From an uncultured Verrucomicrobiae bacterium (lineage in GTDB: Bacteria; Verrucomicrobiota; Verrucomicrobiia; Chthoniobacterales; UBA10450): a stretch of 64,000 nucleotides of DNA. Below the pieces are notes generated by a model that made no database searches, was not told the DNA's origin, and saw only the letters and a program-made list of their open reading frames with translations. A program made the translations under genes and the position numbers. Below, in pieces: positions 9,719-33,273 of the stretch (position 1 is the first letter of the stretch; each line of letters begins with the position of its first letter). The stretch lies in assembly GCA_963834385.1 (NCBI GenBank), contig CAWIBO010000005.1:576001-640000 (forward strand), read 5' to 3'.

Positions 9719-11497
9719 TTGTCGAGCCGATCGCACTTATCTCTGCCCGCTGGCGAGGCCCCCCGCAAGTTGCTTCCGGGCGCCCTGGCCCTGGTCGCCC
9801 TCGCTTTCCTCTGGTTTATCCTCATCCGTCACCTCAGCAATGAATGGTCGGTGAACGAGCAATACGGCTACGGCTGGTTTGTCCCGTTCTTCGCCGCCTT
9901 CCTTTTCTGGCTGCGCTGGGAAGATCGCCGCCGCCCCTTCCCCTCCTGCTCTTGCTCCTGATCCTGCTCCTGCTCCTGATCCTGCTTCTCCTCGCGATCG
10001 TGCTCCTGCTCGTGCTCGTGCTCGTAATCCTGCTTCTGCTCCACCATTCACGATTCACCATTCACGATTCACGCTCCTGCTCCCCGCGGCCGCGGCCGCG
10101 CTGCTCCTGCCGGTCCGCGTTTTCGAGATCGGCAACCCCGATTGGCGCCCGCTCGGCTGGGTTCACGCCGCCATCGTCGTCGGGCTCACGCTCGCTTTCA
10201 TCCACTCGATCGGCGGCCGGTCCTGGCTTCGGCACTTCGCTTTCCCCGTTCTTTTCTTCCTCATCGCGGTGCCGTGGATCACGCCGGTGGAAGCGCCCGT
10301 GGTCCAGGGTCTCATGCGCATCGTCGCAATTGTCTCCACCGAAGTCGTCACGCTGCTCGGCATCCCCGCCCAGCTCGAGGGCAGCCTCATCCGCATCCAA
10401 AATGGCCTCGTCGGCGTCAACGAAGCCTGCAGCGGCGTGCGCTCTCTCCAGACCTCGCTCATGATCGGCCTTCTCTTTGGCGAACTGAAACGGTTCACCG
10501 TCGGTCGTCGGCTCGGACTGATCGTGGGAGCCGTCGTCATCGCCATGATCTTCAATTTCCTGCGCGCGATTATCCTGGTCTGGCTGTCCGCCACAAGAGG
10601 GGCGGAGGTGGCCAATTCCTGGCATGACGCACTCGGCTACGCCATCGTCGGCGGCGTTTTCCTTGGCACCATGGCCCTCGCCGCCGCCTTCGGACGCTCC
10701 AAAACCCCAATCGAAAATCGAGAATCGAAAATCGAAAATCCGTCACCATTCACGGCCCTGACCGCGACGCCGGCCGTCGCCGCCCTCCTCTGGCTCGTGG
10801 CCGTCGAGTTCGGCGCCGCCGCCTGGTATCGCGCCAGCGAAACCGATCTGGTCGCGCGCGAAAGCTGGACCGTGCAACAACCGACCGACGCTCCCGGTTT
10901 TCGCCCGATCGAGATCGACGATCAGGTTCGCCAAACCCTCCGTTACGACTCACGGCTGGCAGGTCGCCTGGACCGGTCCGATCCCCACCGATAACGGACA
11001 ACCGATCACCGATCACCACCGGAAACTCGCTCCGAGTTTCCAGCTCTTCTATCTTCCGCTGGGAACCCGGCACTTCCACCATCCTGCGGGCGCGGGCGCA
11101 TCGCCCGGATGTTTGTCTGCCGAACGTCGGCTGGCGCGAAGCGGCCGACCACGGCATCCGCTTTTACCAGGTGGGCGGCGGCCTCTCTCTTCCGTTCCGG
11201 CATTTCACCTTTGTCCGCGATCTGCCAGGGCGACGCGCACTCCAGGCCGAGGCTTTCTTTTGCATTTACGAAGACCGGGTCCGCCCCTCTTTGCAAACCA
11301 GCGCGGCCGACCTGACCGCCGGCGATGTGGGCGGGTGGATGCCGGCCGAACGGTTCCGCGTGGTCCGCGAAGGCCTGCGCAACCCCGGCCAGCAGGTAAT
11401 GGAATTGGTCATGCTCACGCCTGATGCCCTTTCGCCCGCCGACGCCCAGACACGCTTCGCCGAGATGCTCCCAAGCCTTGTCCAGACCAGCCGCTGA
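9719..11497 (+). CDS. Exosortase fused to a C-terminal EpsI-like domain (apparent frameshifts near 9930, 10950 and 10985-11050)
   Basis: N-terminal QYGYGWFVP; VNEACSGVRS (Cys), NFLRA (Arg) and WHDALG (His) catalytic triad; C-terminal FRWEPG...AHRPDVCLPNVGW (H-x-P-x-x-C...GW, EpsI-like). Confidence 0.88.
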
Positions 11498-11527
11498 CCA
11501 TTTTCCGCCCGCCTCCGCCGAACAGAG

Positions 11528-11773
11528 GACAGGATTAACAAGATTAACAGGATGGGATTGCTGGCTCTTCCGTCTCCCTAAGAATCCTGTCCATCCTGTA
11601 AATCCTGTCCAAATTCGACCTCCGGGAACCGCAAGCGCCGCCGCGTGCCCGTATCGACGCGCCGCGAAAAACGCCCTGCCAGGGAACTCAGAAAGACAGG
11701 ATTAACAAGTTTAACAGGATTTGCTGGCTCATCCGTCTCCCAAAGAATCCTGTCCATCCTGTAAATCCTGTCT
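11528..11773. repeat. Two tandem ~80-bp MITE-like hairpins with 9-mer-array terminal inverted repeats
   Basis: GACAGGATTAACAAG.TTAACAGGAT...TTGCTGGCTC.TCCGTCTCCC.AAG-AATCCTGTCCATCCTGTAAATCCTGTC at ~11528-11609 and ~11695-11772. Confidence 0.88.
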
Positions 11774-11832
11774 AAAAAACTCATCACCCCGCTCGCTGCT
11801 TTGGCTTACCATCACAGAACCACCACCGCCTG

Positions 11833-13900
11833 ATGCCCAGCGATTTCATGATGACGCCGGAAGAGCTCCGGCTGCGCACCCGCAAACGCCGCCGCCTTTT
11901 CCTGATCCTCGGAATCGGCCTCGCGCTCGGGCTCATCATCTTTTTCGCTGCCCGCCCGACCGGTCGCGCCATCAAATCCTGGCAGGCCCGACGTCACGCC
12001 GAGAAAGCCTTTGCCTATCTCGACCAGGAGAAATGGGAGGAGGCGAAAAACTCGGCCGTGTCCGCCTATCAGCTTTCACGCAACGAGCCGCAGGCGATCC
12101 GCGCCATTGCACGGCTGCTTTCCCGGACCCGACAGGCGGAGGCACTCGAATTCTGGAAGCAGTTTCGCGCCGACAACAAGATGTCCGCCGACGATCTCCG
12201 CGACGAGGCAAGCATTGCGCTTCTGGCCGGGATCACGCCGCGGGCCGAAACCGCTATGATCGAGCTGCTGGCCCTGCCCCAGCCGGAACCACGCGACCAT
12301 CTGCTGGCCGCCCAGCTTGCGGCCCAGAAAGGATCGGCCGCCGAAGCCACCGCCGCGATCGACCAAGTCCTCGCCCATCCCAAAACCGACGAACGCGAAC
12401 GTCTCCAGGCCGCCATCCTCCTTCTCGGCGGTCGCGCCCAACGAAGAAACCCGCCAGCGAGCCTGGTCAGAGATCGAGAAGATCGGCCAGGGCCAGACCG
12501 CCCCCGCCCTCGACGCCCTCGTCCTCCTCGCGCAGCGCGCCATCTCCTCGCCGACTCCCCCCAATAACCAACAACCAATAACCAATAACCGCGCCGCCCC
12601 CGGCGCCACCCCCAATAACCAACAACCGATAACCGATAACCGCGCCGCAGGCGCCACCCCCAATAACCAACAACCAGTAACCAATAACCGCGCCGCCCCC
12701 GGCGCCACCGCCCTCGCCCAGGCCCTCACCGCTCATCCCCTCGCCGGCGCCTCGCAAAAACTCATCGCGCGCGACCTGATCATTCGCGACGCGCCCGACC
12801 AGCGGGAGACGATGATCACCGAAGCGATCGCCGAATGGAAACAGGGCAGCCCCGCTGACCTGGCGGCGCTCGCCATGTGGCTCAACGGCAAACAGGAGCA
12901 CGACCGGCTCCTGGAGATCGTTCCGCTCGAGACGGCGCTCCGGTCGCGCGAGCTTTATCTTCAATACCTGGACGCGCTCGGGCGCACTCGGACGCTGGGG
13001 CGAGATCAAGACCCTTCTCGAGGCCGAACGTTTCCCGCTCGATCCCGTGGTGCAGTTCATGTATCTGGCCCGGGCCACGACGCAGCTCGGTGAAAAGACC
13101 GCCGCGGAGAATAGCTGGCTGCGCGCGCTCGACGCCGCTCACGGCAATCCCGGCAAACTCATGAGCGTGGCCGCTTACGCCGAAAAGAACGGGATGATCG
13201 CGGTGGCCGACCAGGCCTATGCGACCACAATCGCCGAGGCCCCGAAACTCCGCGCGGCCCATCAGGCGCGGCTCCGCCTGGCCCAGGGCGAGCGTGACAC
13301 GCGCAAGATGAACGAGACCCTGCGCGTCATGCTCGAGCATTGGCCAAACGATCCCGCCGTGCAGAACGACGAAGCGTATACGCGGTTGCTCCTGTTGGGA
13401 GCGAACCGCGAGGAGTCAGAAGCCGGAAGTCGGGAGTCGGCAGAGTCCGCAGCCGAAGCGGCTTCTCCAACAACCAATAACCAACAACCAATAACCAATA
13501 ACAGCGCCGTCCGGCGCCACCCCCCAAACTTCAATCTCCCATCTTCCATCTCCCGGCGAGGTCTCCTCGCCGTCGCCACCTCAACAACCAATAACGGATA
13601 ACGGAGAACTCGACCAAATCGCAGCCCTCGCTGAGCGCTTGGTCGCCTCCAACCCCACCAGCCTCCCGCATCGCACCCTCCTTGCGCTGGCCCGGCTGAA
13701 GCAAGGCCGCCCCGCCGACGCCCTTAAGGTTTACGAGAACATTCAGGTGCCGCCCGGGGCCCTGACCGCCTCCGCCCTGGCCGTCCACGCCGCCGTCCTG
13801 GCCGCAAACGGCAATCTCGACGAAGCCAGGACCGAAGCCGGCACCGCCGCCCGGTCCGCCCTGCTTGCCGGAAGAGCGCGCACTTCTGACTAACATTTAG
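11833..13900 (+). CDS. Membrane-anchored TPR-like helical-repeat protein with translated repeat inserts (at least 4 frameshifts)
   Basis: Basic patch plus one TM helix (RKRRRLFLILGIGLALGLIIFF), then Ala/Leu-rich helical repeats across ORFs 11833, 12317, 13047 and 13639. Likely ends LLPEERALLTNI* at 13900. Confidence 0.75.
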
Positions 13901-13989
13901 CCCGGCTCGCAAAGGCATTTGTTCAAGGAAGCCGGGCGAATCTCCTCTTTGTCGACCCAGTCAATATTTGTGGACATTTTGGGCTCTCC

Positions 13990-14335
13990 CCCGGTAGGGC
14001 GAGACTCCGTCGAGCCTGGGATCGATAAGGGTGCAGACAGACAGGATTTACAGGATGAACAGGATTAGGTGAAGGCTCCCGCGGCCGAGGGCCGCTCCCC
14101 TTTCAGCTTTTCAGTTGTCAGCATTTCAGTTTTTGCCTTTAGGCTCCGCGCCCCACGCCCCATGCTCCGTGCCCGACCCTGTCAGCTTGTCAGCGTTTCA
14201 GCTTTTCAGCTTTTTTCTTCAAGCTCCCAGCCCCTGCTCCGCGCCCCTAGCTTCCAACTTCCATCTCCAATCTTCCGCGGCCGGCAGCCGCTCCCTTTCA
14301 GCTTTTCAGTTGTCAGCGTTTCAGCTTTTCTCTTA
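13990..14335. repeat. Mosaic repeat array (GTAG REP, 9-mer block, 8-mer TCAGCTTT blocks, 7-mers)
   Basis: GGTAGGGCGAGACTCCGTCGAGCC at 13993, ACAGGATTTACAGGATGAACAGGATT at 14041, and three TCAGCTTT-type blocks. Confidence 0.9.
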
Positions 14336-14345
14336 ACTCCCAACA

Positions 14346-14678
14346 ATGTCCCGCGGCCAACACCTCATCGTTCTGCTCCTTTCCGCCGCCTGTCTCATCC
14401 TCGCGGTCGCTGCGCTCGCCACCGCCCGGTCTAATCAGGATCTGCAAACCGAGCTGCAAGCCCAGCAAACCGAGATCAACAAAGGCGTGCTCAGCCAGCA
14501 GATCGGGACCAATCTCATCCGCGACATTGCCGGGTCCGCCATTCAAAACGAGAACCTGCGCGCCCTGCTCGCGCGTCACGGCTTCACCATCCAGGAAACA
14601 CCGGGACCGGCCGCCGCGCCCGCAAACGCCGCCACCCCTTCGTCGACGCCTGGCACTCCGCCGCCGCGCCGCCGCTGA
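14346..14678 (+). CDS. Small single-TM coiled-coil protein A1 (unknown function)
   Basis: TM helix, then NQDLQTELQAQQTEINKG..SQ.IG.NLIRD...NENLRALLARHG, and a Pro/Thr tail ending PRRR. Clear paralog of 21735..22085. Confidence 0.85.
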   Translation: MSRGQHLIVLLLSAACLILAVAALATARSNQDLQTELQAQQTEINKGVLSQQIGTNLIRDIAGSAIQNENLRALLARHGFTIQETPGPAAAPANAATPSSTPGTPPPRRR

Positions 14679-15070
14679 TGATGCGCCCGCCCCAACACCT
14701 TCCCCCGCAGCCACACCGTGACCTCGCCCATGGACGATCCGCCGTTGTTCAATCCGCCCCGGTCCGAACCGCGTTTTGGCCGCTCTTTTTCATCTCCCTC
14801 ACCCTGATCACCGTGCTCGGCTGGGAACTGGCCATGGCCGGCCAGGCCCGGCGCACCGCCCAGCAACTGCGCACCCAGCAAAACAGCGTGGTCGAACAGT
14901 CACAGCAGGTTCAACTCGCCCTCGAAAAGCTGGCGCGCGACCTGGTCGAGCTCGGCAAAACCGACCCCGCCGCCCAAGCCTTGGTGACGAAGTACAATAT
15001 CAGCGTAACCGGCGTCCCCTCGTCGCCCGGCCACGGCGCCCTCCGCGACCCCTCAGTAGCGGCCGTGTAG
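14678..15070 (+). CDS. Small single-TM coiled-coil protein B1 (unknown function; start uncertain)
   Basis: AFWP plus TM helix, a Gln-rich coil, then LEKLARDLVELGKTDPAAQALV. Paralog of 22093..22470; start overlaps the A1 stop. Confidence 0.82.
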   Translation: MMRPPQHLPPQPHRDLAHGRSAVVQSAPVRTAFWPLFFISLTLITVLGWELAMAGQARRTAQQLRTQQNSVVEQSQQVQLALEKLARDLVELGKTDPAAQALVTKYNISVTGVPSSPGHGALRDPSVAAV

Positions 15071-15095
15071 CGTCGGCCGTCCGCGTGTCCCCTCG

Positions 15096-15292
15096 GGAGA
15101 TCAGTGATCGGTGATCGGCGATCCGTAGTCGGAGATTAGCCCCTCCTGCTCCTGCTCTTGATTCCTGCCCTCTAAGGAGATCAGTGATCGGCGATCAGTT
15201 CCTCCCTTGGCTGCCGACCATTCACGGTTCACCATTCAACCATTCACGCACCCTTCCCCCCGGTAGGGCGAGACTCCGTCGAGCCTGGGAGC
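15096..15292. repeat. Mosaic repeat array (7-mer TGATCGG, 6-mer CTCCTG, 7-mer CCATTCA, GTAG REP)
   Basis: GGAGATCAGTGATCGG twice, CTCCTGCTCCTGCTCTTG, and a REP at 15262-15285. Confidence 0.85.
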
Positions 15293-15430
15293 AAGCGTGG
15301 CTGCTCAGAGACAGAATCTTCAAAACTAACCCCCTTCTGCGCTGAAAGGTGACGTAATAGATTGCGAATATACCACTTACACGACTTCTTACGCGCGCAT
15401 AACTTTTCTCGGAAAATTGTGGAAATTCCT

Positions 15431-15459
15431 TTGACAGAAAACCGATAAACAGGTCTACT
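15431..15459 (+). promoter_or_regulatory. Putative sigma70 promoter of PEP-CTERM gene 1
   Basis: TTGACA-N17-TCTACT in an AT-rich stretch ~95 nt upstream of ATG 15554. Confidence 0.55.
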
Positions 15460-15553
15460 GCGCCTCAGCTTTTCCACGTCCCCTTCCCCCCGCAGAACCT
15501 CTCCTCCCCCCAAGTCGCGAAATTCATCGCCCTTCGTTTGTACCTGATCCCCC

Positions 15554-18500
15554 ATGGATTCTGATCTCTCCTCGCGTCCACTAGACGAGCGCCAGCTCTC
15601 CACCAAAGGATTCACCATCCTTTGCATCGTCTTCCTCCTCCTCGCCGCCGCCGCGGCTTCGTATGGGCAGACATGGACCGGCGGAGGTTCCAGCGATGAT
15701 TGGGGCGATGGTGGTAACTGGTCCGGCGGTGCCCCCAGCTCATCAGGGAGCGCGATCCTAAACTTTGCAGGGACCGCGAGGCTGCAACCTTGGAACAACT
15801 ACGCGAACTACACCCAGTTTCAGTCGATCTTTTTCAATGCAGGTGCAGGGGCATTCACGCTGCGCGGGAATGCAATCAAGCTTTTCGGGAATATCCAAAA
15901 CGACAGTTCGAGCTTGCAAACAATCAACTTCGGATCGTCGGGCGAAGGTAAATGGGGCTTTGTTGGTGGAAATAATGCGGACAGACAATCGTTTCACCCT
16001 GAACAGCGGTAACATAACTGTTAGCCAGTCCATTTTCCTCGATAACGGGGCTGGCATCAATGTCTATGGCTCGAATCGTAACACGTTGACTCTGGATGCA
16101 GTGGTCTTTGACGGCATTGGCGCGAGCGGAGATTTCACAATCAATACCGATCAGCTTGTTATCTTCAATGCTGCGAATACGTATTCGGGACAAACACGCA
16201 TCAAAGCGGGTGAGTTGCGCCTTGGTAACAGCGGTGGGATCAAGAGCGGCACCACCTTCTTTCTGGGTAATTCATCCGGGTCAGCAAATGCTACGCTTAG
16301 CCTAAACGGCTCCAGCCAGACGATTTCGAACGCGGTGAATGTCGAGTCGGGGAATACCGGCACGATGACCGTTCAGTCTTTGAATAATTCGGGGACGAAC
16401 ACTCTTAGTGGGACGCTCACCTTGAATAAGGCGACAACAATTTCTGCGGTCTCCGGTGGCACGTTAGCAGTGAACACGATCACTGGTGTTAACACGAGCA
16501 ACACGCTGACCATTGGCGGAGCGGGAACGGTCAAGTTGGGTGGGACCGTCGACAACACCAATCTCAGCATCAATGCCGCGAGTGGAACATTGATTCTGGA
16601 AAAAACGAGCAGCGGACCCGGCGGGCTCGTCGCAGGCGTTCGTTCGCTGGGCGGCACTCTGACGCTTTCCGGGGGAACCGTCCAGATCGGCGGCACCGGA
16701 CAGGGCGGGAGCACGACCAACGTCGACCAAATCTATAACGGGGCGGACGTAGTGGTGAACAGTGGCACCCTTGATCTGAATGGACGCAACGAGACGATCA
16801 ACGGCTTCAGCGGGACGGGCGGGTATGTGACCAACAATGCCACCGGAACCAGCACCCTTACGGTCGGGTTTGATGGCGCTACTGGCACCTTCGCTGGCAC
16901 AATCCAGGACGGCGGCAGCGGCAAAGTCCTTGCCCTGACAAAGACCGGCAGCGGCACGGTTACTCTCTCGAACACGACCAACACTTACACCGGCGGCACC
17001 GTAGTTTCCGGCGGCCTCGTGGCTATCCGAGAAGGTACAAGCTGGGGGCGTCGCCAGGATCGTTTCAGGCAGCAAACGTCACGTTGAATGGCGGCGGATT
17101 GACCGTCGATTGGACTGCGACGTATGCCGTTGCGTTGCAGACGAACCGGGGTGTTACAATCGGCTCAGGCGGCGGGTCCGTAGGTGCCGGCACCGCCCAC
17201 AGTTCGTCACTAACAATCAACGGTGCCATCGTGAATAACGCCGGCGCCGGCCAGTCTTTCTTCCTCGGGGGCACCAACGCTATCACCATCGGCGGCGCCA
17301 TTTCTGGTTCCGGTCTTGTCCAGGTAAATGGCAGCAACGTCGCCTTCAGCGGAACGAACACTAATTCTGGTGGAACGCAGATCGATAGCGGGGCGCTGCT
17401 AAAGATGAATGGCGGGCAGCTTCAGTCGACAACGGTCGGCTCGCTGGCTGCGAATGGCACGTTTGATCTGAATGGCACGTCTCAGACTGTCGCCGGCCTG
17501 ACGGGAGCAAGTAGCGGCAGTATCCGAAATAACAATGGCACCGCAGGTTCGCTGACGATAAGCGTCGCCACTGGGAACAATACGTTCAACGGCACAATCG
17601 GTAACACAGGCCAAAATGATCTAAGCCTCACGAAAGGGGGGAGCGGCACCCTCTCTCTCACCGGAGTCAATACGTTCACTGGTGGGATCGTAGTGAACGG
17701 CGGGACCCTTTCCGTAAACTCGAATAGCGCGCTTGGCGATACAGCAGGCGTCGTTACTCTGAACGACGGGGCCACGTTCAACAACACTGCGATTGTGAGC
17801 ACCGCCAACGGTATGCGCCTCTTTACAATCACGAATGCTGCCAATGCTACCATCACTTTCAACACCGGAGCGGACTGGAGTTTTGCCTCTAGCGGGACGC
17901 GTGGGATCAGTGGCGGCTCTTCTACCACAACTCTGATCAAAACGGGCGCTGGTACGCTCACCATCAACAACAACTCCCAGTCCCTGACCGGCAACTGGCG
18001 GATCGATCAGGGGACACTTTCGAATTCCTTCGCGAACGCTAATTCATTGGGCACGGGCAACGTGACGCTAAACGGCGGCACGTTTCTAATGAGTTCCTCA
18101 CTGTCGAGAACTGCCGATCGGATTTTCACCTTCAACAATGTCGCGGGCAACGTCATGGACGTGGCCACGAGCGGCATATTCGTCTTTGACGTGGCGAATC
18201 GACTTACAGGCGCAGGTGGGTTCTCGAAGACTGGCAATGGCACACTCCAGATCGCTGCCGGGCAAAATTATGCCGGCACTACCCAAATCACTGGTGGCGT
18301 GATCTCGATAACAGGCGCGGGCAGCATCGCCAACGGAGCGTCCGGTTCCCGTGTGAATATATCGTCTGGTGCGCAACTCGACATCAGTGGCAGCACGTCG
18401 GGAGCGAGTGTCTCAATTATTTCGGAAACCGGCGGGACCAACGGGGGTGCAGTGAAGCTTGGGGCGCGAACCCTCACGATGAACGGAGGAGCGGCGAGCA

Positions 18501-21500
18501 CGACTTACCAGTTCGACAACCTCGGCATTGCTGGCGACACGGGCGGGTTCACTTTGAATGGTGCGAACGCCAGCACGACGCTGCGACTTTACGGGGCCTC
18601 TGCGTATACGGGCGCGACAAGCATTCAGCAGGGCACCTTGGTCCTGGCAGGCACAGGAGCGTCCTCCGGTTATACTCTCTCGGGCGGCGGCCTGACGACC
18701 GAAGGAGCGAATCGTCTTACCAGCGCCAGCAACATTACTGTGTCGAATAGCGGCAGTACCTTTACAGTTGGCGGGGCTACGGAAACGGTCGGGGCACTCG
18801 CGGGCAGCGCAGGCACGATTGCGATTGGTGCAAACACTCTGACCACCTCTAGCGCCAGCTCGACGACATATAGCGGTGTCTTCACCGGTATCGCGGCTGG
18901 CCGGCTTGAGAAAGGCGGAACTGGCACGCTGACCCTCGGCGGAAGCGGAAGCGCGTTCCTCGGGCAGCTTAAGTTGGCAGAGGGCACAGTCGTTGTGAAC
19001 AGCGCTTCAGCTTTGGGCAATAACACCTCGACTTCGACGCGCGCGATCGACCTAGGCCTTAACGCTGCGAACACCTCTCAAGCAAACAACGTTTCGCTGC
19101 TCGCGAGCAACGGCGTCACGTTCAGCCAGTCCATCTACGTTGCGCCGAACACGTCCAACGCCACGCGCACCATCGGCTTGAATGGCGGCGCCGGCTCTGC
19201 CACATTTAGCAACGAAATTTTTCTTGCTGGCAACGCGACGCTCGATGCCACCGGCGGCGCGACGACCGTCAGTGGCAGGTTGACTGGCGCTGGCGGCATT
19301 ATTGCCAATGCCGGAAACATCTCCTTGAATGCGGCAAACAATTATACGGGATCTACCGCAGTCAATGCCGGAACTCTCACCATCAAAAACAATAGTGCTT
19401 TGGGAACGACGGCAGGTGGCACCAGCGTCGCTGGCGGCGCGACTCTGAAGCTTGATGGCACGGGCAGCTCGCTTTCAGTGGGCGCGGAGGCTCTCACCCT
19501 TAACGGGAGCGGCGTCGCCAACGGTGGCGCCCTGGCAAACGTCGGCACGAACTCCTACGCTGGCGCCATCACTTTGGGCAGCAACGCGTCGATCCACGCC
19601 GGCGGAGGAACGCTGAATCTCACGGGCGGAATTACGAAAGATGCCAAAATTCTTACCCTTACCGGTGGCGGTACGATCACCCTCAGCACCTTCGGAATTT
19701 CCGGCGCGTCAGCCGGTTCCGACCTGATCGTGGATGGCGTTACTTTCAATGCCAACGTCGCCAACGACTACAACGGTCCGACGTCGATCATCAACGGCGG
19801 TGTCTTCAACGCGAACGTCGCCGATGCCCTCCCCCCCGCGAACGGCCGCTCGGCTGTCAGCATGGATGCGACCGGCTCCGGCAGTTCGCAGCTAAACCTG
19901 GGTGCAAATCAATCCATTGCCTCGCTGCTCGGACTCAGTTCTTCGCTGATCAATTTGAACGCGTTTACTCTCACGTTCGGCACCGGGGCAGGTACCTTCC
20001 GATTTCGCCGGTGTCATTTCTGGCAGTGGTAAACTCGTGAAGGATGGTGCCAGCACCCAGTCGCTCTCCGGAAACAACAACTTCAGCGGGGGCACTGATC
20101 TTGCCGGAGGAACGCTGGCCATTAACAGCGCCTCTTCGCTCGGAGCCGTGGGCGGTGCTCTCGCTTTCACCGGGACCAGCACTCTCCGGACGGATGCAAG
20201 CTTCAGCTCCGCTCGTAATTATTCGATCAATTCCGGCGTCACAGGGACCATTGACACCAACAACAACACCTTCACGCAAACCGGCGTCATTTCGGGCGAT
20301 GGCAACCTGAGCAAGTCTGGTGCGGGATCGCTGATCGTGACCGGCACCAACACCTACCTTGGTGCAACCACCATCAACAGCGGGATCCTTCAGGTCGGAA
20401 ATAACGGCACAACGGGAACGCTCGGTGCCGGGCAGGTGAACATTGGCGATGCCGCCACGTTGCGTTTTGACCGCTCCGATCCGTTTTCGGTCAGCAACAG
20501 CATCAATCTCGCGGGCGTTGGCGGTCAGCAGGGCTTTGTTAATGTCTTCAGGAGCGGGCAGCAGGTAACGCTTACCGGGGCGATCACCAGCGCCGGCGCC
20601 GGTCTGACCAAATCGGGACTGGGCAAGCTCGTGGTCGATAATGCCTCGAACAGCTTTACGTCAGATGTCCGTATTCAGAGCGGGATCCTGGAGACCGCAA
20701 CTCTCTCATTCGGCGGTTCCAACAGTTCCCTCGGGAAAGGCAGCATCTTTATTGGCGACGACGGAAGTGCCGGCACATTGCGTTACACCGGCACAACGGC
20801 CAACACAGACCGGCTGCAATTCAACGCCCTTCAGGCGACCGGCACAAACAACATCATCGACGTGGTTTTCTTCCGGGACCACCCTCACGGTCACCTCAAA
20901 TATGACCGAAGACGCTGCGGGCAATGGCCTAGCTAAGGAGGGCGCGGGCGCGCTTAGTCTGACTGGAGCCAACAACTATAGCGGCGCTACTTCGGTTAAC
21001 GCTGGCTCGCTGTTCGCGAATAATTCGTCGGGTTCGGCTACGGGCACCGGAAACGTGACCGTGAACAATTCCGGCACAACCCTGGGCGGCACTGGCGTGA
21101 TCACGGGCACCGTGAACGTTGGGGCAGGCGCCAACCTCGTCGTCGGTAGCACGGCAGCCGCAGGAACAACCGAAACCCTTCACATCGGTTCCCTCACCCT
21201 GGCTTCCACTTCTAACTTTACCGTCGACCTGATGGGCACGGCGGTTGGCTCAAGTTACGACCAACTCCTCGTCATGGGTGCGGTCAATCTTGGAGGAGCA
21301 AACCTGATCGTGAACGCAGGGGCTGGACTTAACCTTCTGGATAAGTTCTTTATCGTTTCGAATGACGGTGTCGACGCCATCAACGGAATTTTTAGCCAGA
21401 ATGCGACGGTTAGCTCCGGGAACTACCTTTTTGCCATTAATTATCTCGATAATTTCGGTGGGGTCGGTCCCGGAAACGATATCTCGTTAACCGTGACCGC

Positions 21501-21597
21501 CGTCCCCGAGCCCGGCACGTGGATCGGCGGCTCGCTCGCGTTCCTCGCGATCGGCTACACCCAGCGCCGCCGGTTCCTGAAGCGCCGCGCTTCTTAG
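15554..21597 (+). CDS. Giant (~2,000 aa) PEP-CTERM protein with autotransporter-associated beta-strand (PATR-like) repeats; 4 apparent frameshifts (~15975, 17045, 19995, 20868)
   Basis: Signal peptide then TWTGGG...W....NW; many LTKxGxGTLxLxxxNTYTGGTxVxxGTL repeats; C-terminal VPEPGTW, TM helix and RRRFLKRR. Confidence 0.9.
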
Positions 21598-22085: not shown

Positions 22086-22092
22086 AAACATC

Positions 22093-22470: not shown

Positions 22471-22471
22471 T

Positions 22472-22940: not shown

Positions 22941-22957
22941 TCGGCATTTTCTTTGCG
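22941..22957 (+). promoter_or_regulatory. Putative sigma54 (-24/-12) promoter upstream of the giant surface-protein gene
   Basis: TCGGCATTTTCTTTGCG: exact GG-N10-GC spacing with GGCA and TTGC cores. A sigma70-like TTGACG-N18-TCTTAT follows at 22975-23004. Confidence 0.5.
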
Positions 22958-23382
22958 GAGACCCTCTTTTCTTGTTGACGAGTGGGAGGCGACTTTGGTC
23001 TTATCCGCCGTTCTCATTCGCGTTCTCCCCCGGCCAGCGCCTTAACCCCTCCCCCAAATCTGAAAACCCGCGTTTCCATCGCCCTGGCCGGATTGCGCCC
23101 TAACGCCGGGCCGACCGGTCCAAAAACCTCGCGCCGTTACAGTTTCTACAACGCCAACTCGATCGGGTGCGCCAGCAATCAGACCCCTTTTCGAGGAGGC
23201 GGTCGTGACGAATCCACGAGCCGTTCGTTCGACATGCTAACTGCGCAGTCCTTTCTCATGAGAAGCTTTCCTGCCCTTGCTCTGCACTCTTGCGGTCTGC
23301 GCTCTCTCGCGCGGCTGTGTGATCGCTTCCCATTTTTCGGTGCGGTGAACTCGGCTGACATCCAATCGGAGGTTTCCGGCAA

Positions 23383-26300
23383 ATGACTTTCCAGCCTCTT
23401 TCTTTCCTCAGCCGCGTGCAGCAACAGCCTTTGACGCGGCTTCGCGCGGCAGCCTCCTCCCTCGCTAAAACCTTCGGCGCCTCGCTTCCGCGCCGCATTT
23501 CCGCCTTTCACTCCCTCTTCTGTTTGATGATGGTCGCTTCCTCGTTCTTTGCAGTGGCGAGCACAACTTTAGGAGCAACCTACAATTTATGCACCTCTAC
23601 TGCTGACCTGACCGCTGGTTCCAAATATATTGTTGTTTCAACAGGGACCAACGGATCCGGCGTTGCGCTGAGCTATCAAGCTGCGAGTAACAGACCTCAG
23701 TCCGCCTCGGTTACTGTAGCCTCAAGTGCGATTTCAACGACGGCGGCATCCGTCTCATCGGATACAACCTCAGCGTACGAGATCACTCTCGGCGGGAGCA
23801 CCGGGGCGTGGACCCTTTATGATGCAGTTAACGCTGGATATCTGTATGCCGCTAGCTCATCTAATAATCACCTTAAGAATCAATCGACCTCAACGACTTG
23901 GACAATAACTTTTTCTTCAAATGCTGCAATCATGACCAGTGCGGCGCAGGCGACTCGTAACGTATTACAATACAATTCCACCAGTTCTTTATTCTCGTGC
24001 TATACCTCGGGTCAGTCTTCCGTTTACCTGTATAAGTTGGCAGCCGGCCCCTCTGCCCCGGTCGTCACGACCGGCACCGCCGGCACCTTCACCACCACTT
24101 CCGCAGCAATTACCGGCAACAATGTGACTTCAGATGGTGGCTCCGCTGTGACTGAGCGCGGCATCGTCTATAACACCAGCGCAACACCGACTACAGCGAA
24201 CTCGAAGGTCACGGTCGCAGGTACGACCGGCAGTTACGACGCAAACATGACCGGTCTGACGGCTGGCACCACTTATTTTGTAAGGGCCTACGCGATCAAC
24301 GCCATCGGCACGAGTTACGGTTCCGAAATCAGCTTCCCCACTTTGCCCTCAGCGCCGGTGGCGAGCGCGGCAACGGCCATCACCTCCAATAGTTTCAGCG
24401 CGAACTGGGCGGCCGCGACCGGAGCGACCAAATATCGCCTGGATGTATCGACTGATAACGCATTCGGCAGTTTCGTTTCCGGCTTTAGCAGCTTGGATGT
24501 CGGAAACGTAACGACGAAGTCGGTTACGGGCTTGGCGGTCGGAACAACTTATTATTACAGAGTCAGAGCAGAAAACGGCTCAGGCCAGAGCGCAAACTCC
24601 GGCACGATCACGACCGCCACCACCACGCCGACCATCGTCATCACCGGCTCCTTCACCCCGTTTACCACAACCTTTGGCACAGCCAGCGCAGCGCAATCAA
24701 TCAGCGTTTCAGGGTCCAACCTTCTGGCCAACATCACGGTCACCGCCCCCACCAACTACGAGGTATCGCAAACGGCTGGCGGAGCCTCTGGTTATGCGGC
24801 TTCACAGGTATTAACGCAAAGCGGCGGGACAGTTCCCAGCACTACCGTCTATGTGCGGATCGCTGCTTCCGCGCCGGTTGGATCTCCGGCCGGCAATGTC
24901 TCCGCCTCGAGTACGAGCGCGACTACCCAAAATGCGGCGGTGAGCGGAACGGTGTCGGCCGCGGCGCCGACCGTGACGACGACCTCTCCCGCAACGAACA
25001 TCTCTACAACTTCAGTGACGTTGGGTGGCAATATTACCAACACGGGCGGCTCGAATGCGACAGTGCGCGGCTTCGAATACAGCACGACCAACGGGTTCGC
25101 CAATGGAAGTGGAACACCGGTTTCTGAAAGTGGCAGTTTCTCAACGGGTGCCTATACCCTGCCTGTGACCGGCCTCACCCCTGGAACGATCTATTACTTT
25201 AAAGCCTTCGCCACGAATCCCGGTGGAACCAGCTACGGAGCGCAAGTCTCCTTCACGACAGTGCAGGCATACTCGGGTTCTTATAGCGTAGGAACAGGCG
25301 CACCGCTCTACACCACTCTGAAATCGTTCTTCGACGCGGTGAATGCCGGTGTAGTGACAGGGAACATCACCGTAAACATTGTCGGCGATTGCGCCGAATC
25401 AGCTGCTGCCGTCCTGAACCAATGGACGGAATCACCCGCGAGTTCGAATTTCACCATGTTGATCCAGCCCTCGGGCGGAGCGGCCAGGACGATTTCCGGA
25501 AGCATCTCGGGAAATCCATTGGTCAATTTCAACGGCGCGGACAACGTCACCATCAATGGCTTAAATTCGGGTGGGAATTCGCTCACGATTTCCAACACTG
25601 ATTCGGGCGCGACCTCCGGCACTTCTACGATCAAATTCATCGGTGGTGCAACCAACAACACCATCACCAACGCGAGCGTGCTCGGATCGAGCAGCATGGC
25701 CGTGGGGACGAATGGCGGCAACATCTGGTTCAGCACTGATGCCGTTACTTCCGGCGGCAACGACAATAACACCGTCTCCAACTGTAATATAGGTCCAGCG
25801 GGCGCCAATCTACCTACGAAGGGAATCTTCGGAAGCGGGTCCACCGGCACAACCGCGATTGGCAACAGTGGCATCGCCATTAACAATAATAACATCTTTG
25901 ACTTCTTCGGCGCGGCGACGACAAGCGCCGGTGTTTACACGAGCGGCGGCTGCAACACCTGGACAATTACCAATAATCGCTTCTATCAAACCGGGACGCG
26001 CACTTGGACAACCGGCGCGAACCATTTTCCGATCGACATCAACAATACCTCCGCCACATCCGGAGCCCAAGGTTTCACGATTACCGGCAACACAATCGGC
26101 TACGCCTCGAACACACAAACTGGCGCTTACACTCTGACTGGTTCAACGGGCAAATTTGTTGGCATTCACTTTAACGGAATTACAGGCGGGACGAGCAGTG
26201 ACATTTCGAGTAATACGATCGCATCGGTCAGTCTGAGCGGGGTTACGTCCTCCGGCACCAGCACCAGTAGCCCTTTCATCGGCATATACATTGAAACCGG

Positions 26301-29300
26301 TGTCACCGCCACGAACAGCAACGTCCTGGGCAGTCAAGCGGTGACTGGCTCTCTGACGTTCTCCACTACCACAACGACTGCCACAGATGTTCACGGCATC
26401 TACAATTTCAGCTCAGACGTGTGGACGTCCAGCAGCAATAACATCGGCGGCATTTCTGTAACCAATGCAGGAGCCTCTGGAACGTTTACCGTGTATGGCC
26501 TGAGAGCCAATACCCTGACCAGCGTGGCCTGGACCGCCGCCTCGAACCTCGTTGGCGGAACCGTTGCCGACTCGATTCAATTGAATGCGACAGGCGCGGC
26601 CTCGCAGGTCATAGGCATTCACACGAGCAACGCACCCTCCACCCTGACCTCCAACACCGTGAGGAATCTCTCGTCGAACATCGGCACCGGAACGACTACG
26701 GGCGCCTCTGTGATCGGGATGAATTTAACGACCACTTCATCCAACCACACTCTTTCCCAGAATACGATTCATAGCCTCGCCAATACGAGTGCTGCGACAG
26801 CGACCACGGTGACGGGAATCCAATACACCGCGTCAACGGGCCCCAACCTAATCAACAGGAACTTCATCCATTCTTTATCGGCCGCCAGCACTACGGGGAC
26901 ATTGAATGGAATTCAAGTAAGCGGCGGCACCTCCACTTACCGGAATAACATGATCCGCCTGGGAGCGACCACCTCTACCGCGCTCACCATTAACGGAATT
27001 AACGACGCTGCCGGAACCAATAATTTCTATTTTAACAGCGTCTACGTCGGCGGCAGCGGAGTCGGCACGACGGCCAGCAACACATTTGCATTTCGTAGCC
27101 TTGTGACAACCAACACCCGCGCGTTCGTTGACAACATTTTCATGAATGCGCGCTCCAATGCGACCACCGGGGGCAAACATTATGCCGTGCAGGTCGGGGG
27201 CACCACTTCGAATCCAGCGGGCCTGACCATCAATTACAACGTTTATTTCGTCTCCGGAACCGGCGGCGTTTTCGGTCAATTTAACGGCGCGGATGTCGCT
27301 ACCCTCACGGCTTGGCGCACAGCAGTCGGCCAGGACCTTAACAGCATCAGCGGAGACCCTCAGTTTATCAATCCAACCGGCAACGCTACCACCGTTGATT
27401 TACATATCAGCCCAAGCGTCGCTACGCCGGTAGAAAGCGCGGGAAGCCCGATCGCCGGCATCACGATCGACTTTGATGGTGATACCCGAAATGCGACCAC
27501 GCCGGATATAGGCGCGGATGAGGGGACCTTCATTTCGTCTGTTACGGCTGCAATCAACGTGTCGCCGAGTAGTCTCTCCGGATTTTCTACGAACTTTGGC
27601 ACGCCGTCGGCCGCGCAATCGTTTGACGTATCAGGCACCGACTTAACAGGCGACATTTCGATCGCGGCGCCGGCGGGATACGAGGTGTCGAAAACCTCCA
27701 GCACATCTGGATTTTCCGCCTCTCAATCCTTGACTCCTTCGAGCGGCACGGTGCCGACGACGGCTATCTTCGTGCGACTGACAAACGCCGCTCCGGTGGG
27801 TTCTGTTGCGGGCAACGTTATTGTGAGCAGCCCCAGCGCAGCCACCCAGAATGTGGCGGTGAGCGGCAACGTGACAGCCAATGCGCCAGCCGTGACAACC
27901 GGCACGGCAACATTGATTACCACGACAGGAGCCACCCTGGGCGGCAACATCACGGCAACCGGGGGTTCGAATGCGACCGAACGAGGCGTTTACTACAGCA
28001 CAACGAGCGGCTTCGCTAATGGAACCGGAACCAAGGTTTCTACGACCGGTAGCTACACCACTGGCGCTTACACCGTGGCCGCGAGCGGCCTGAGTGACAG
28101 CACGACTTACTACTTCAAAGCCTTCGCCACGGGTCCAGGGGGGACGAGCTACGGCTCGGAGGGCACGTTTAGTACCCTTGAAGCCCGAGCCGGCGGCACA
28201 TGTCACCAGCTTTACGACTGGAACAATCACCACCACGAACATCCCGGTGCAATGGACGGGCACAACGGCTGACGGGTACCTGTTAAGGGTAAGTTCCACG
28301 ACTCCAGCTGATCCAGTGGATGGAACAGCCGTGTCGGATAAGGCGGCGATTACCAGTGGGACCGGCAATATCAATCTTCCCGCCGGGACTACCTCGTACT
28401 CCGGCTTCACCGGGTTTCTCGCTGGAACGACTTACACGTTCAAGATCTACCCCTACAACAACAGCGGAACGGCCATTGACTATAAGACAACGGGTGCGCC
28501 GAGCGTTTCTGCCATACTTGTCCCGGCTGCGCCGGCCACGCCGACATTCACCGCAGTAACCTCGACCGGCTTCACGGTGAATTGGGGCGCGGTCAATGGC
28601 GCAGCGAGCTACCGACTGGATGTTGCTACCGACAACACCTTCACGAGCTTCGTTGCGGGTTATAGTGATCTGACCGTGTCTGGAACGAGTCAAGCCGTGA
28701 CGGGTCTCGGCGCGAATACTCCCTACTACGCACGCGTCCGGGCCGTTAATGCCAGCGGCACAAGCGCTAATTCGAGCGCGGGAACCCTGACAACTGCCCA
28801 GCTGTCGGCTCCGGTAACCCTGCCAGCCTCAGCCATCACCACGACCGGATTTACGGCCAATTGGAATCCCGTTACGGGCGCGACGGGTTACGAAGTGGAT
28901 GTATCGGAGCCTGGTCCCGTGCTGGCTGAGGACTTTACCGACGGTGATTTCACTGCTGCTCCGGTTTGGTCAGGGGACACGGCGAGTTTCGCGATTCTCT
29001 CTGCAGCTACCTTGCCGAGTGGATCTGCGGCGACTGATGGAAATTATCTGGGAAGCAATGGGAGTGTAGGGAGTGCCATTCTTACGACTCCAAGCACCGA
29101 GACCTCAGAGTGGAGGTTTTCATGGGGATCGCCCAGCTTCAGTCCATCTGGCGCGAATCATTTCGGCGTTATCCTAATGTCCACTGCCGCAGTGACGGGA
29201 GACATCGCTACTGCATCATTTAACGGCTATTATCTACGACTTGGGGCCAACGGGAGCGCCGATACTGTAGAACTGTGGAGAAGCACGGCGACCACTAAAA

Positions 29301-31108
29301 CGAAAGTGGGAGATTTTCCCAGCGCGCCGGGGCTCGACACCGCCGCGTTGCAAGATGGTCTCGACGTGCGCGTTACTCGTAACGCGGCCGGCGTATTTCA
29401 GCTGTTTTATGCCACGGGCTTCCAGTACGGAGCCACCCCAACTACGTCCGCTGGGACTCTGACGGACGCCACCTACTCCTCCAGTGCATACTTCGGCGTC
29501 TACACTTCGTTTGGCAATCCTTCGGCAACGCGCCGCGTCTATATCGATAATATCGTATTCGCTACTCCGAGCCAGGTGTTTTTGACCGGCGGCACCACCG
29601 CGGGAACCAGCTTGAGCTTCTCCGGGCTGTCAGCAGGAACTGCTTATTCCTACGTTGTCCGGGCGACGAGCGCGAACAGCACCAGTCCAAATTCCGACAC
29701 CCGCTCTGTCGCTACTACAGCGACACCAACCATCGAGATCAGCGGGACGCTAACCGCCTTCACCACCACTTATGGAGCCGCCTCCTCTGCCCAAACACTG
29801 AACGTCTCCGGCTCAAATCTAACCACTGACATCACGGCAACGGCTCCCGCCGGATACGAGGTCTCCAATGGCGGGCCTTACGGTCTGACCACAACCTTCT
29901 CTCAAAGCGGTGGCTCAGCCACCGGCACCCTGAGCACACGTCTCGCGGCCCTGACCAAGCCGTCGGATTCGCTCGGAACAAATCTGGCCGTCGCCAGCAG
30001 TGGCGCGTCCACGCAGAACGTCACTGTCTCAGGCACGGTGAACAAGGCCACGCCCACTGTGACCGTCGACGCACCGTTCACCTTTACCTACAACAACACC
30101 GCCCAAGGGCCGAACAGCGCCACGGTTACCGGTGTTTCCGGCGGGGTGGCCCCGTCTGGCACCTTGAGCTTCAGCTATGCCGGCAGCGGGATGACCACCT
30201 ACATGGCCAGCGCCACAAGGCCGACCGACGCCGGCTCGTATGACGCCACCGCCAGCATCACAAGTGACGCGAATTACCTGGCGGCCTCCTCCGCAGCCAC
30301 CGCCTTCTCCATTGCCAAGGCCGACCAGACCATTTCGTTCACCCTGCAATCGAGCGTGGCGAAATCCGCCGGCTCACTCGGGTTGAGCGCCTCCGCCACG
30401 TCCGGATTGCCGGTCTCGTTCGCCTCAGGCACACCGAGCGTCGCAGGAGTCACAGGCTCGACGCTCAATCTCCTCCAGGCCGGCACGACCATTGTCACCG
30501 CCAGCCAGGCCGGCGGCACCAATTACAACGCCGCTCCCAACGTCGACCGGACCCTCCATGTCACCGGGCCCATCGCGGCCAACGACATCAACATCACCCG
30601 GCCGGCCAATAGTTCGGACTTCAAAATCCCGATCAGCGATCTCCTGGAGAACGACCAACGCGTTGACGCCAACGGGAATCTCCTGCCCACCGGCATCAGC
30701 CTGAGCTCGGTGACTGCCGGTATGGACAACTTTGTCGAGATTGCTGGCTCCTATGTCTACTTCGAGCCGGTCGATCCGGCCGCCTCGCCGCTCTCCTTCA
30801 CTTACACCATCACCGACGGCAGCTCGGAGGACACGGCCACCGTCACGGTCACGACCGCCGCCGCCGAGAACTTCACGCTCAACATCGTGAGCGCCGGCGC
30901 CCTCTCCTACGACTCCATGGCCGACGAAACGACCGTGACCGTCCAGCTCATTGGCGTCCCGAATCAGACCTACACCATCGAATATTCCAATAACATGATG
31001 TCCTGGACAAACCTGGGGTCGACCGCCACCGGCTCGACCGGGTCGTTCCAGGTGACCGTTATCGCTCCCGGCAACCAGAACTCCTTCTTCTTCCGGGCAC
31101 GCAAATGA
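23383..31108 (+). CDS. Giant (~2,570 aa) secreted Thr/Ser/Gly-rich multidomain protein: FN3-like repeats, parallel beta-helix, Ig/MBG- and cadherin-like domains, C-terminal 'Y.IE.S..W...FFR' domain; frameshift near 28180
   Basis: Signal-like hydrophobic stretch; YYYRVRA/YYFKAFATN.GGTSYG FN3 motifs; I.NN.I beta-helix repeats ending DFDGDTR...PDIGADE; KADQTISF; PIAAND; ends YTIEYSNNMMSW...SFFFRARK. Confidence 0.88.
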
Positions 31109-33273
31109 AGATCAAAGCGCTCCCCTTCGTGAAACCGCTCCTGCTTGCGGGAACAGCGATGCTCTTCGCCCTGACCGCCCGCGCGGAACTGGTGGTGGAC
31201 TACAACTTCACGGTCAATGCCAATATCCCGGATGGGGTCGGCCAATATTCAAATACCCGGACACTGGGCGGTTTTTCGAGCTACTCGGATGTGAATGCTC
31301 GCATCAACCTGACCAGCGCGCCCGGGAGCACGATGTGGCTCGGTGATCTATATTCGACGCTGACCCTCGGCACCGCCGCTGAAAACGAGCGCGTGGCGGT
31401 CCTTCTCAACCGCCCAGGCCGCAGCAACGCCGCGGGGAAAGGCGCCGGCAGCAGCCTCAGTTCTCTCAATATCACCCTCGACGACGCCGCCACCTACAAC
31501 GTCTTCCATGCCACCGACCACCCGACGGAGCTCTTCCTCGAATCTGATGGACGACTTGGAATCAGCCCGACCGGTCCCCGCGTCGCCTTTAATGAAGCCG
31601 ACCGCAACGCCACCCTCACCGCCTTGAACGGCTCCGCTCTCTCCAGCAACACCTTCACCATTCTTATGGCCGACGTTTCCCAGGGCGGACAGGCGAACCT
31701 GGCCGCCTGGGGACTTACCATTACCGGCACCGCTGCGGGGAGCGGTACCCTGAGCGCCGACGGCGGCACCATGGTCATCCGCGACACCAGCAGCGGCGAC
31801 AACAACACCCTGGGTGCGCAGGTTGTGACCACGCAAGCCGGTGGTGGCCCGCTCGTGGTGAACATTGCCGGCAGCATGACTTTTGCGGGCGGGGTCAGCG
31901 GCAGCAGCGGCTTGACCAAACAAGGAGCGGGCACCCTGATTTTGGGCGCGGGCAATACGTATGCGGGTCCGACCACCATCACTTCCGGTATCGTCGAGGT
32001 GTCGAGCCTGACGAACGGCGGCGTCGCCAGCAGCATTGGCAACTCCAGCAACGCCGTGAGCAATCTCGTCCTTGGCGGCGGCGGCGCCTCCACCACCGCG
32101 CAGCTGACCTACACCGGCTCGGGCGACAGCACGGACCGTCTCTTCACCCTCGGTGCAAGCGATGCGAACATCCTCAACGCTTCCGGCACCGGCGCCCTTG
32201 CCTTCGGGAACTCCGGGGCGCTCGCCTTTCTCGGCTCTGGCAATCGCTCTCTCACCCTTGGCGGGACAAACACCGGCGAGAATATCCTGGCCCTTCTCCT
32301 CGGGGATCCATCCGGTGGCACCTTTTCCCTTCTCAAAACGGATGCGGGCACCTGGAATGTGACAAACCAGAGCAACACCTATTCGGGCTCCACCTCACTG
32401 GGAAATGGCACTCTTGGGTTTGCTGACGGCGCCCTCGGTTCGGGCCCCCTCGTTTTTACGAACCCGGTCGGGACCGCTTCTCTGCGCTGGAACACCGGCA
32501 ACGTGCAGGACCTTTCCAGCCGCATCACGATCAACGATGGCGTAACCGCCCGGTTTAACACCAACGGCAACAACCTCACCTTCGCCAGCACCCTCGGCAC
32601 CCAGGCGGGCCAGACCGGCGCCATCGTGAAATCGGGACTCGGCACCCTGACTCTTTCCGCCCCCAACGTCTACAGCGGCGGCACCACCGTGAACGGCGGC
32701 ACCCTGCTGGTGAACAACACGACCGGCTCGGGCACGGGCACGGGCGCGGTCACGGTGAACAATGCCGGCTCGACCTTCGGCGGCACCGGCATCATCTCCG
32801 GGTCCGTCACGGTCAACGCGGGCGCAAACCTCGCACCGGGCGCCAGCACCGGGATTCTGCAGACCGGCGCCCTGACGCTGGAGTCGAACTCCAACTTTGT
32901 CCTCGACCTGAATAGCCTCGTCGCCGGCACCGGCTACGACCAGCTCCGTGTCACCGGCGCGGTCAGCCTCGGCGGCAGCAACATTCTCGTAAACGCTGGT
33001 CCCGGCCTTTCCCTGGGCGACACCTTCTTTGTTCTTCTGAACGACAGTAGCGACGCCATCAGCGGGCAGTTCGCCCAAGTGTCGCTGGTTTCATCCGAAG
33101 GCTATATTTTTGCCGTTGATTACTTCGCCAACGGCGACAGCGGCATGCTCGGGAATGACATTTCCTTGACGGTGACCGCCGTTCCCGAGCCGGGCACAGT
33201 CCTGGCGGGGCTCCTTCTCCTCGGCGCCGTCGGCTGGTCACAGCGTCGCCGATTCCTGCCAGCGAAGTCGTAG
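31105..33273 (+). CDS. PEP-CTERM protein with N-terminal proprotein-convertase P-like domain and autotransporter-associated beta-strand repeats
   Basis: Signal peptide; NIPDG...DV.ARINL.....WLGDLY..LT; LTKQGAGTLIL...NTY.GPTTI repeats; VPEPGT, TM helix and RRR. ATGA overlap with the upstream gene. Confidence 0.9.
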   Translation: MKIKALPFVKPLLLAGTAMLFALTARAELVVDYNFTVNANIPDGVGQYSNTRTLGGFSSYSDVNARINLTSAPGSTMWLGDLYSTLTLGTAAENERVAVLLNRPGRSNAAGKGAGSSLSSLNITLDDAATYNVFHATDHPTELFLESDGRLGISPTGPRVAFNEADRNATLTALNGSALSSNTFTILMADVSQGGQANLAAWGLTITGTAAGSGTLSADGGTMVIRDTSSGDNNTLGAQVVTTQAGGGPLVVNIAGSMTFAGGVSGSSGLTKQGAGTLILGAGNTYAGPTTITSGIVEVSSLTNGGVASSIGNSSNAVSNLVLGGGGASTTAQLTYTGSGDSTDRLFTLGASDANILNASGTGALAFGNSGALAFLGSGNRSLTLGGTNTGENILALLLGDPSGGTFSLLKTDAGTWNVTNQSNTYSGSTSLGNGTLGFADGALGSGPLVFTNPVGTASLRWNTGNVQDLSSRITINDGVTARFNTNGNNLTFASTLGTQAGQTGAIVKSGLGTLTLSAPNVYSGGTTVNGGTLLVNNTTGSGTGTGAVTVNNAGSTFGGTGIISGSVTVNAGANLAPGASTGILQTGALTLESNSNFVLDLNSLVAGTGYDQLRVTGAVSLGGSNILVNAGPGLSLGDTFFVLLNDSSDAISGQFAQVSLVSSEGYIFAVDYFANGDSGMLGNDISLTVTAVPEPGTVLAGLLLLGAVGWSQRRRFLPAKS

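Follow-up and report, generated by a model that had tools for sequence, protein, structure and literature searches.

An unannotated pair of small coiled-coil membrane proteins beside giant surface-protein genes in Verrucomicrobiota, and its tentative role apart from the exosortase module

The locus considered here lies in a 64,000-nucleotide stretch (the window; G000:C5:576001-640000) of the genome of an uncultured Verrucomicrobiae bacterium (G000; 2.9 Mb in 5 contigs, 89.6% complete); codes beginning with G, L, f and g are working labels for genomes, loci, families and genera. On the plus strand, the sequence gives in order an exosortase gene (xrt), a gene for a TPR protein, a pair of small genes termed A1 and B1, a giant gene (giant 1), a second small pair (A2 and B2), a second giant gene (giant 2) and a PEP-CTERM gene. 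An initial annotation of the window had already described this order and its single strand, although xrt, the TPR gene and both giant genes are in pieces and not the uninterrupted reading frames of that layout. The question raised by the locus is whether A and B are dedicated parts of the exosortase system, as that annotation proposed, or serve the giant proteins or the cell envelope in some other way. What is new is the unannotated A/B pair, with a moderate and unproven link to adhesins, while the sorting module is a variant of a known system.

B is a paralogue of A (HHalign 97%, E 2.9e-11). Neither has a match in Pfam or NCBIfam, sequence searches of the PDB returned designed helical proteins only, and structure searches with Foldseek and VIA returned generic coiled coils only, which bears out the annotation's view of a real pair without a recognised family. 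The literature covered, beyond which most subscription papers lie, holds no description of the pair or of the exosortase subfamily found beside it. Each model comprises a 63-residue helix containing a transmembrane (TM) segment and a coil, a helix of 9-10 residues, and a disordered Pro/Ala tail (pLDDT 77, pTM <0.4), and the coil of B has a hydrophobic period of 3.5 residues. Among representatives at 50% identity, the A profile has 1,169 matches at E 0.001 (the last one listed being spurious) and 347 at 1e-10. Homologues of B bear the source name 'Chthoniobacteraceae bacterium' and most Atlas clusters of A come from Verrucomicrobiota, which points to an organism of the Chthoniobacterales type. 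Searches with single proteins returned only the query itself and one spurious match in a histidine kinase, with none in plasmids or metagenome contigs. G000 has no further copies of A or B (the single weak extra match sits inside lysyl-tRNA synthetase), and the DNA flanking A1-B1 and A2-B2 has only short patches in common, so that the duplication or second acquisition must be old.

It is highly probable that A and B form a heterodimer. Within 100 A/B loci collected from 14 families and 41 genera (stretches of up to 16-20 kb, some ended by contig ends), A is directly upstream of B in all 97 loci where both could be scored; the remaining three comprise one locus with a divergent A-like open reading frame (ORF) upstream, seen by eye, and two fusions. 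Relative to the base length, the stretch between the TM segment and the head is extended by as many as 50 residues in A (+50) and 42 in B (+42). The insert classes are paired (A/B: +7/+7, +11/+12, +15/+14, +24/+21, +31/+36 and +50/+42). The two partners belong to the same length class in 97 of 98 pairs (two rows without an anchor were left out), with an r of 0.99 that is inflated by kinship; an earlier motif-based method, which skipped 19 of 103, gave 0.93 over 84 pairs. On the 100-row tree, which omits L120 and the first A of L209 and L210, the lengths require 7 changes when A is considered singly, 8 when B is, and only 8 when the two are considered jointly. Additionally, two genera have A and B fused into a single ORF (L212:3211-4134 in G838:C78 and L225:1322-1991 in G846:C284). 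Both fusions contain an A-type domain (E 2.5e-9 and 4.3e-9, respectively), a Pro-rich linker and a B-type domain (2e-16 and 6e-13), and both have a signal-peptide-like start, judged by eye, with no TM segment seen in either half; L225 reaches a contig end. The fusions suggest both that A and B are partners and that they are located outside the cytoplasm, and together with the joint length changes they make a periplasmic heterodimer anchored in the inner membrane likely. The predicted A1+B1 complex (score 0.09, mark 0.32, controls not folded) was used neither for nor against this. The L212 fusion has an additional N-terminal domain without a Pfam match. Among 8,000 candidates of 313-2,000 amino acids there were no longer forms of A or B, a weak negative since this size range lies above both fusions.

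The soluble parts of A and B are likely to be on the periplasmic side of the membrane, and the alternative has some support from charge. ATP synthase b and b' form a paralogous stalk pair, and A and B could similarly face the cytoplasm (N-out), holding some cytoplasmic partner at the membrane. In alignments of 43 rows (without L049, and without the A sequences of L118 and L120, which are frameshifted or divergent), B has a net charge of -1.0 before the TM segment and +1.0 after it, and Lys and Arg are richer after the TM segment in 34 sequences versus 2. However, the FtsB and FtsL controls are likewise richer in Lys and Arg after the TM segment, the net charge pattern of A is the same as that of the controls, and the two fusions carry signal-peptide-like starts in place of TM segments, so a cytoplasmic orientation is improbable.

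The exosortase, the TPR protein and PEP-CTERM/PATR cargo constitute a conserved module of the family that is independent of A and B. The window exosortase retains its catalytic motifs (EACSG at 10422, NFLRA at 10554 and WHD at 10620), and its intact relatives have ACSG in 18/18, NxxRA in 15/18 and HDxxG in 18/18. The generic exosortase cut-off (TIGR02602, 105.55) is passed by 7/7 intact relatives at 106-116 bits; the main piece of the broken window gene scores 96.6, and 123 with PF09721 (cut-off 25.7). No subfamily cut-off was passed when the exosortase was compared with XrtA, B, C, D, H, J, N, O, Q, T, V, W and Crt, the best scores being 113-125 versus 208 for XrtA, at most 97 versus 400 for XrtD and at most 99 versus 425 for XrtW. 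The module's exosortase is thus probably an unnamed subfamily of the known system; the idea of a separate type holds to this extent, but its definition by A and B is not supported. The EpsI label of the initial annotation stands only weakly, as PF11984 gave E 0.0011-0.066 and 13-19 bits in 3/3 intact relatives, under the cut-off of 26.1; an HxPDVCL motif is present in 18/18 relatives. The TPR pieces of the window score 15.6-16.5 bits with the PrsT model, versus 312.2, and four intact TPR homologues had no PrsT match at E 1e-8 or 1e-20.

TPR matches were present in 102 of the 200 genomes of the family, and 20 loci around strong matches were sampled (omitting L087, from the genome itself, and the unpublished L102). 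In all 20, xrt is directly upstream of the TPR homologue, and in 19 PEP-CTERM and/or PATR genes are within the stretch. Neither A nor B is in any of the 20, including four in genomes that have A/B elsewhere. The upstream neighbour of xrt-TPR is a WecG/TagA-like gene in 12/20 by eye, confirmed with PF03808 for L013, which fits the link of exosortases to exopolysaccharide drawn in PMC1569441. The epimerase and GDP-mannose 4,6-dehydratase (gmd) genes upstream of the window module, which had been suggested to supply glycans for the cargo, were not found in the DNA around 24 other xrt-TPR loci (for 20 of these only 2-3 kb upstream). The module resembles the PEP-CTERM/exosortase (EpsH)/EpsI/PrsT system in its Cys/Arg/His motifs, fused weakly EpsI-like domain, adjoining TPR gene, PEP-CTERM cargo and nearby polysaccharide genes. 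It differs in that the exosortase falls in no named subfamily, the TPR protein scores about 16 bits versus 312 for PrsT, and PATR cargo is clustered here; A and B are not among the components described in the part of PMC1569441 that was available. G000 has a second frameshifted exosortase-TPR pair at G000:C3:402821-406214, with a divergent PEP-CTERM-like gene and without A/B, and contig C2 has two further exosortases.

The initial annotation held that A and B are dedicated subunits of the exosortase-TPR machinery, one copy per cargo cassette, and that they define a new exosortase subtype. In keeping with this, A/B follow xrt-TPR in G000, G022 and three g45 genomes, lie between PEP-CTERM genes and a TPR gene in G562 (L120), and in G000 are missing from the tolC-pgeF-lpxA site where sister genera have them. 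An exosortase is present somewhere in 10/10 distant A/B genomes tested, but it is also present in 4/5 genomes without A/B, and per-genome presence is uninformative because exosortases are near-universal. Homologues lying mostly away from sorting loci had been named as the outcome that would speak against the proposal, and this is what was found: an exosortase is present in 4 of the 100 A/B loci, all in g23 or g45 of one subclade, and absent from the other 96, while A/B are absent from all 20 other xrt-TPR loci and from the second pair on C3. On the trees, the exosortase-linked placements, with the window, amount to one or two changes. Among genomes with A, 19/30 have the TPR gene and 11/30 do not, and 81/167 genomes without A have it (this cross-count omits the unpublished G648, G002 and G685, which are included in the raw tallies of 31/200 for A and 102/200 for TPR). 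The duplication of A/B within the family is seen only in G000. There are indeed two copies in the window, but they do not each precede an exosortase substrate: giant 2 has no PEP-CTERM tail in its sequence and no PF07589 match, so A2-B2, which is directly downstream of giant 1, is not directly before a substrate. Gene context therefore largely refutes the proposal of dedicated subunits, which is now very improbable. The exosortase module does without A/B, and a subtype defined by them is unsupported. Local recruitment in one subclade could still hold. The annotation's periplasmic strut, chaperone or acceptor survives in part, as a likely periplasmic rod that is not devoted to the exosortase.

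If A and B do not belong to the exosortase, their neighbours may point to what they serve. A PATR gene is a direct neighbour of A/B in 6/193 slots versus 5/1013 slots farther off (odds ratio 6.5, Fisher p 0.004). The loci concerned are L112 (f45), L197 (f30), L190 (f9) and L214, L218 and L221 (f8); with the window and the autotransporters recognised by eye at L121 and L175, 11 rows and at least 7 changes on starred tree branches are involved. Several of these A/B genes are second copies, and the copy at L214 is of the g32 type in a g313 genome, suggesting transfer together with the adhesin. Where the sequence reaches the C-terminus, the ends of the giants are varied and include an autotransporter-like barrel (L121, L175 and L190), PEP-CTERM (window giant 1) and another short motif (L112). 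The feature they share is therefore a giant beta-helical passenger and not the exosortase; the association of A/B with giant cargo thus stands as an excess of giant neighbours, but it extends to autotransporters and is not restricted to PEP-CTERM proteins. In the complete set of all 18 matches in the class of G456, 2/18 adjoin such giants. G220 and G456 are exceptionally rich in PATR genes, the open frames in G220 reaching 20,385 codons, and in G888 a tandem A-B-A-B (L218:7428-9461) lies behind a PATR gene of 1,995 amino acids.

Within the genomes searched, the distribution of A/B is patchy. In the sister family f8 they were found in 29/29 genomes, and B subsequently in 103/121 (65/71 among good ones); genus g33 has A/B in 11/11, and in the family of G000 A is present in 31/200 genomes of five genera. 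Families f6, f7, f13 and f14 gave 0/29 each in the genomes searched, with A/B in 10/300 genomes across the phylum and 18/201 in the class of G456. In f8 the genes are mostly flanked by those for a LacI regulator and the CCA-adding enzyme, and in the sister genera g4 and g43 they follow a PgeF-like gene in 24/24 loci (the TolC-PgeF/lpxA site). The tolC-pgeF-lpxA site is empty in G000. A-A-B triplets are found in G836 (L209:7179-8124 and L210:7267-8229).

The interpretation favoured here, with a probability of roughly 0.45, is that the A/B rod would be a general envelope helper or holdfast for giant exported proteins, by analogy with SadB and SadA. SadB is an inner-membrane coiled-coil protein that is encoded beside its adhesin SadA and raises its surface display (PMC3953254). 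SadB resembles A and B in being small, anchored in the inner membrane and periplasmic, with a Gln-rich coil, in being encoded beside a giant adhesin and in having a paralogue in a housekeeping position; SadB itself is a lipoprotein that forms homotrimers, carries a MATH-like domain and serves a trimeric autotransporter (PMC3953254). In contrast, A and B have TM helices and no beta domain, and their neighbours are PATR proteins of several export types. A lipobox pattern is present in 0 and 2 of 43 members of A and B, and the models have no strands; A and B as proteins of the SadB/YajI type are ruled out by the lack of a lipobox and of a MATH-like beta domain.

Several observations weigh against a helper role. 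About nine in ten A/B loci have ordinary neighbours, most copies sit among housekeeping genes, G060 (95% complete) has A/B but no PATR match, and many cargo-rich xrt-TPR modules are without A/B (present in 0/20). The excess of PATR neighbours comes from few loci that include kin, partly in multi-copy genomes sampled after the pattern was noticed and partly in the giant-rich genomes G220 and G456, and giant genes may simply be landing places for moving genes. Charge patterns leave the topology open, the N-terminal side of B being net acidic, unlike that of FtsB/FtsL, and strict tests of length on independent pairs come down to 2-3 pairs, all concordant and not significant. A/B could instead be a rod-like heterodimer of the envelope whose task is a housekeeping one unrelated to giant proteins (for example as a lineage-specific scaffold for cell shape, division or the wall). 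It would have arisen from FtsB/FtsL or converged on them, and its adhesin-side copies would hitch-hike in recombination-prone islands. The near-core status of A/B beside housekeeping genes in f8, the PgeF-like upstream neighbour in all 24 g4/g43 loci, and the presence of A/B in a genome without PATR agree with such a job. So does the FtsB/FtsL-like build: like FtsB (DivIC) and FtsL, A and B are a paralogous single-pass pair whose members differ in N-terminal tail (short in one, longer in the other) and share a long coil followed by a short helix, and a KTDP-like turn is at the equivalent place in B and the local FtsB. The closest named models in the Atlas, DivIC (TM 0.63/0.71) and FtsL (0.54/0.61), do not reach its bar.

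However, the resemblance does not extend to sequence profiles or gene context. Profile comparison of A/B with the genomes' own FtsB/FtsL gave HHalign values of 2.6, 39, 3.2 and 0.6%, versus 78% for FtsB against FtsL, and PF04977 matched 3/43 B members with a best E of 0.015. The A/B models lack a C-terminal strand, their distribution is patchy, and the genes adjoin each other outside the dcw cluster and not after eno. Separate copies of ftsB in 6/6 and of ftsL in 5/5 genomes inspected, together with the failed profile match and the gene position, rule out that A/B are FtsB/FtsL. A housekeeping scaffold is further disfavoured by the absence of A/B from most of the families searched and by their repeated, independent placement beside PATR giants, and it is a less probable explanation than the helper for giant proteins. 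A narrower form of that helper role is more doubtful still: A/B would be a strut of Verrucomicrobiota with co-lengthened near-heptad halves and a lineage-specific reach, gripping nascent giant beta-helical adhesins of all export routes, with extra copies travelling with adhesin genes and soluble single-chain forms having arisen twice.

The likeliest arrangement is one in which A and B are anchored in the inner membrane and their periplasmic coils zip in register as a parallel coiled-coil heterodimer. The two-helix head would then be held about 6 nm (base length) to 12 nm (+42) off the membrane, as estimated at 0.15 nm per residue, and could hold on to large beta-helical surface proteins or chaperone them in the periplasm, whichever export route they use. 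In the window, two A/B copies would have settled in a surface-protein island on a separate exosortase-TPR-PEP-CTERM/PATR module, with giant 1 and the 722-amino-acid protein as the expected substrates, each losing its PEP-CTERM tail to the exosortase. Both of these tails have, by sequence, a PEP motif, a TM segment and a basic end, with PF07589 scores (17.3 and 18.3 bits, respectively) under the cut-off of 20.7. The end of giant 2 (30970-31108) is a short domain that finishes in aromatic and basic residues, as in a large secreted protein of L016; it has no Pfam match and is possibly another C-terminal export signal.

Table 1. Features of the island and its upstream neighbours, in positions of the window
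Feature	Position	Strand	Basis and remarks
Exosortase with weakly EpsI-like C-terminal domain, frameshifted	9719..11497	+	PF09721 123 bits; EACSG, NFLRA and WHD motifs; 3 tblastn pieces versus intact relative
TPR protein with hydrophobic N-terminal anchor, conserved partner of the exosortase	11833..13893	+	4 frame pieces; xrt directly upstream of homologue in 20/20 loci
A1, 110 amino acids: TM segment, Gln-rich coil, short helix, Pro/Ala tail	14346..14678	+	No family match
B1, 130 amino acids, paralogue of A with longer N-terminal tail	14678..15070	+	Start overlaps A1 stop
Giant 1, about 2,010 codons, PATR repeats and PEP-CTERM tail	15554..21597	+	5 ORF pieces; PF12951 and TIGR02601 over cut-off
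A2, 116 amino acids	21735..22085	+	50% identity to A1; begins 137 bases past giant 1
B2, 125 amino acids	22093..22470	+	43% identity to B1
Giant 2, about 2,575 codons, FN3 and Ig/cadherin-like domains, without PEP-CTERM tail	23383..31108	+	2 ORF pieces
PATR and PEP-CTERM protein, 722 amino acids	31105..33273	+	4-base overlap with end of giant 2
NAD-dependent epimerase, neighbour and not a conserved part	8532..9656	-	Best NCBIfam match GDP-L-fucose synthase, far under cut-off
GDP-mannose 4,6-dehydratase (gmd), neighbour and not a conserved part	7086..7919	-	ORF spans profile 1-218 of 342

The broken genes (xrt in 3 and the TPR gene in 4 pieces by tblastn, giant 1 in 5 and giant 2 in 2 ORF pieces) give the island at least 10 breaks in about 17.5 kb. 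Frameshifts are also present in 4/25 other genes compared with relatives (0.27 breaks/kb, the rate in the island being about twice that), and because genes outside the island are affected as well, assembly error is a likelier cause than gene decay. Scans for promoters and terminators gave results at chance level only. Short arrays of 6-8-base repeats are found within exosortase and TPR loops (9940-10060, 10710-10740, 10990-11025, 12560-12700 and 13470-13600) and between genes (11520-11770, 14090-14330 and 15100-15250), and several types of repeat motif cluster in this island and, elsewhere on C5, in a single region near 750 kb. The island is closed by an RNA-binding RRM protein (33707-33985, +) and isocitrate dehydrogenase (35816-37141, +); in G022 the same dehydrogenase gene follows A/B at a distance of about 7 kb. 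Farther on, a histidine kinase, a sigma-54 response regulator (41275-43395) and a GlnD/GlnE-type protein of 917 amino acids are in a row at 41275-46213 (+), and a protein with a double bactofilin domain (PF04519) is encoded at 47463-48326 (-). Long ORFs without a Pfam match at E 1e-4 are at 48868-50586 (-), 50717-52888 (+), 53719-55092 (+) and 55968-57095 (+), some of which are perhaps wrong-frame calls.

The literature covered does not explain the passage of giant Verrucomicrobiota proteins, PEP-CTERM or other, through the periplasm once they have left the inner membrane. The locus offers two handles on this problem. One is the exosortase-TPR-PATR module, conserved but unnamed, and the other is the pair of paralogues, which matches no family and shows unusually clear genetic signs of a heterodimer. 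The stepwise joint changes in length provide a natural ruler series for the distance spanned by the rod. Even if a helper role fails, A and B would be an unannotated near-core envelope component of one family.

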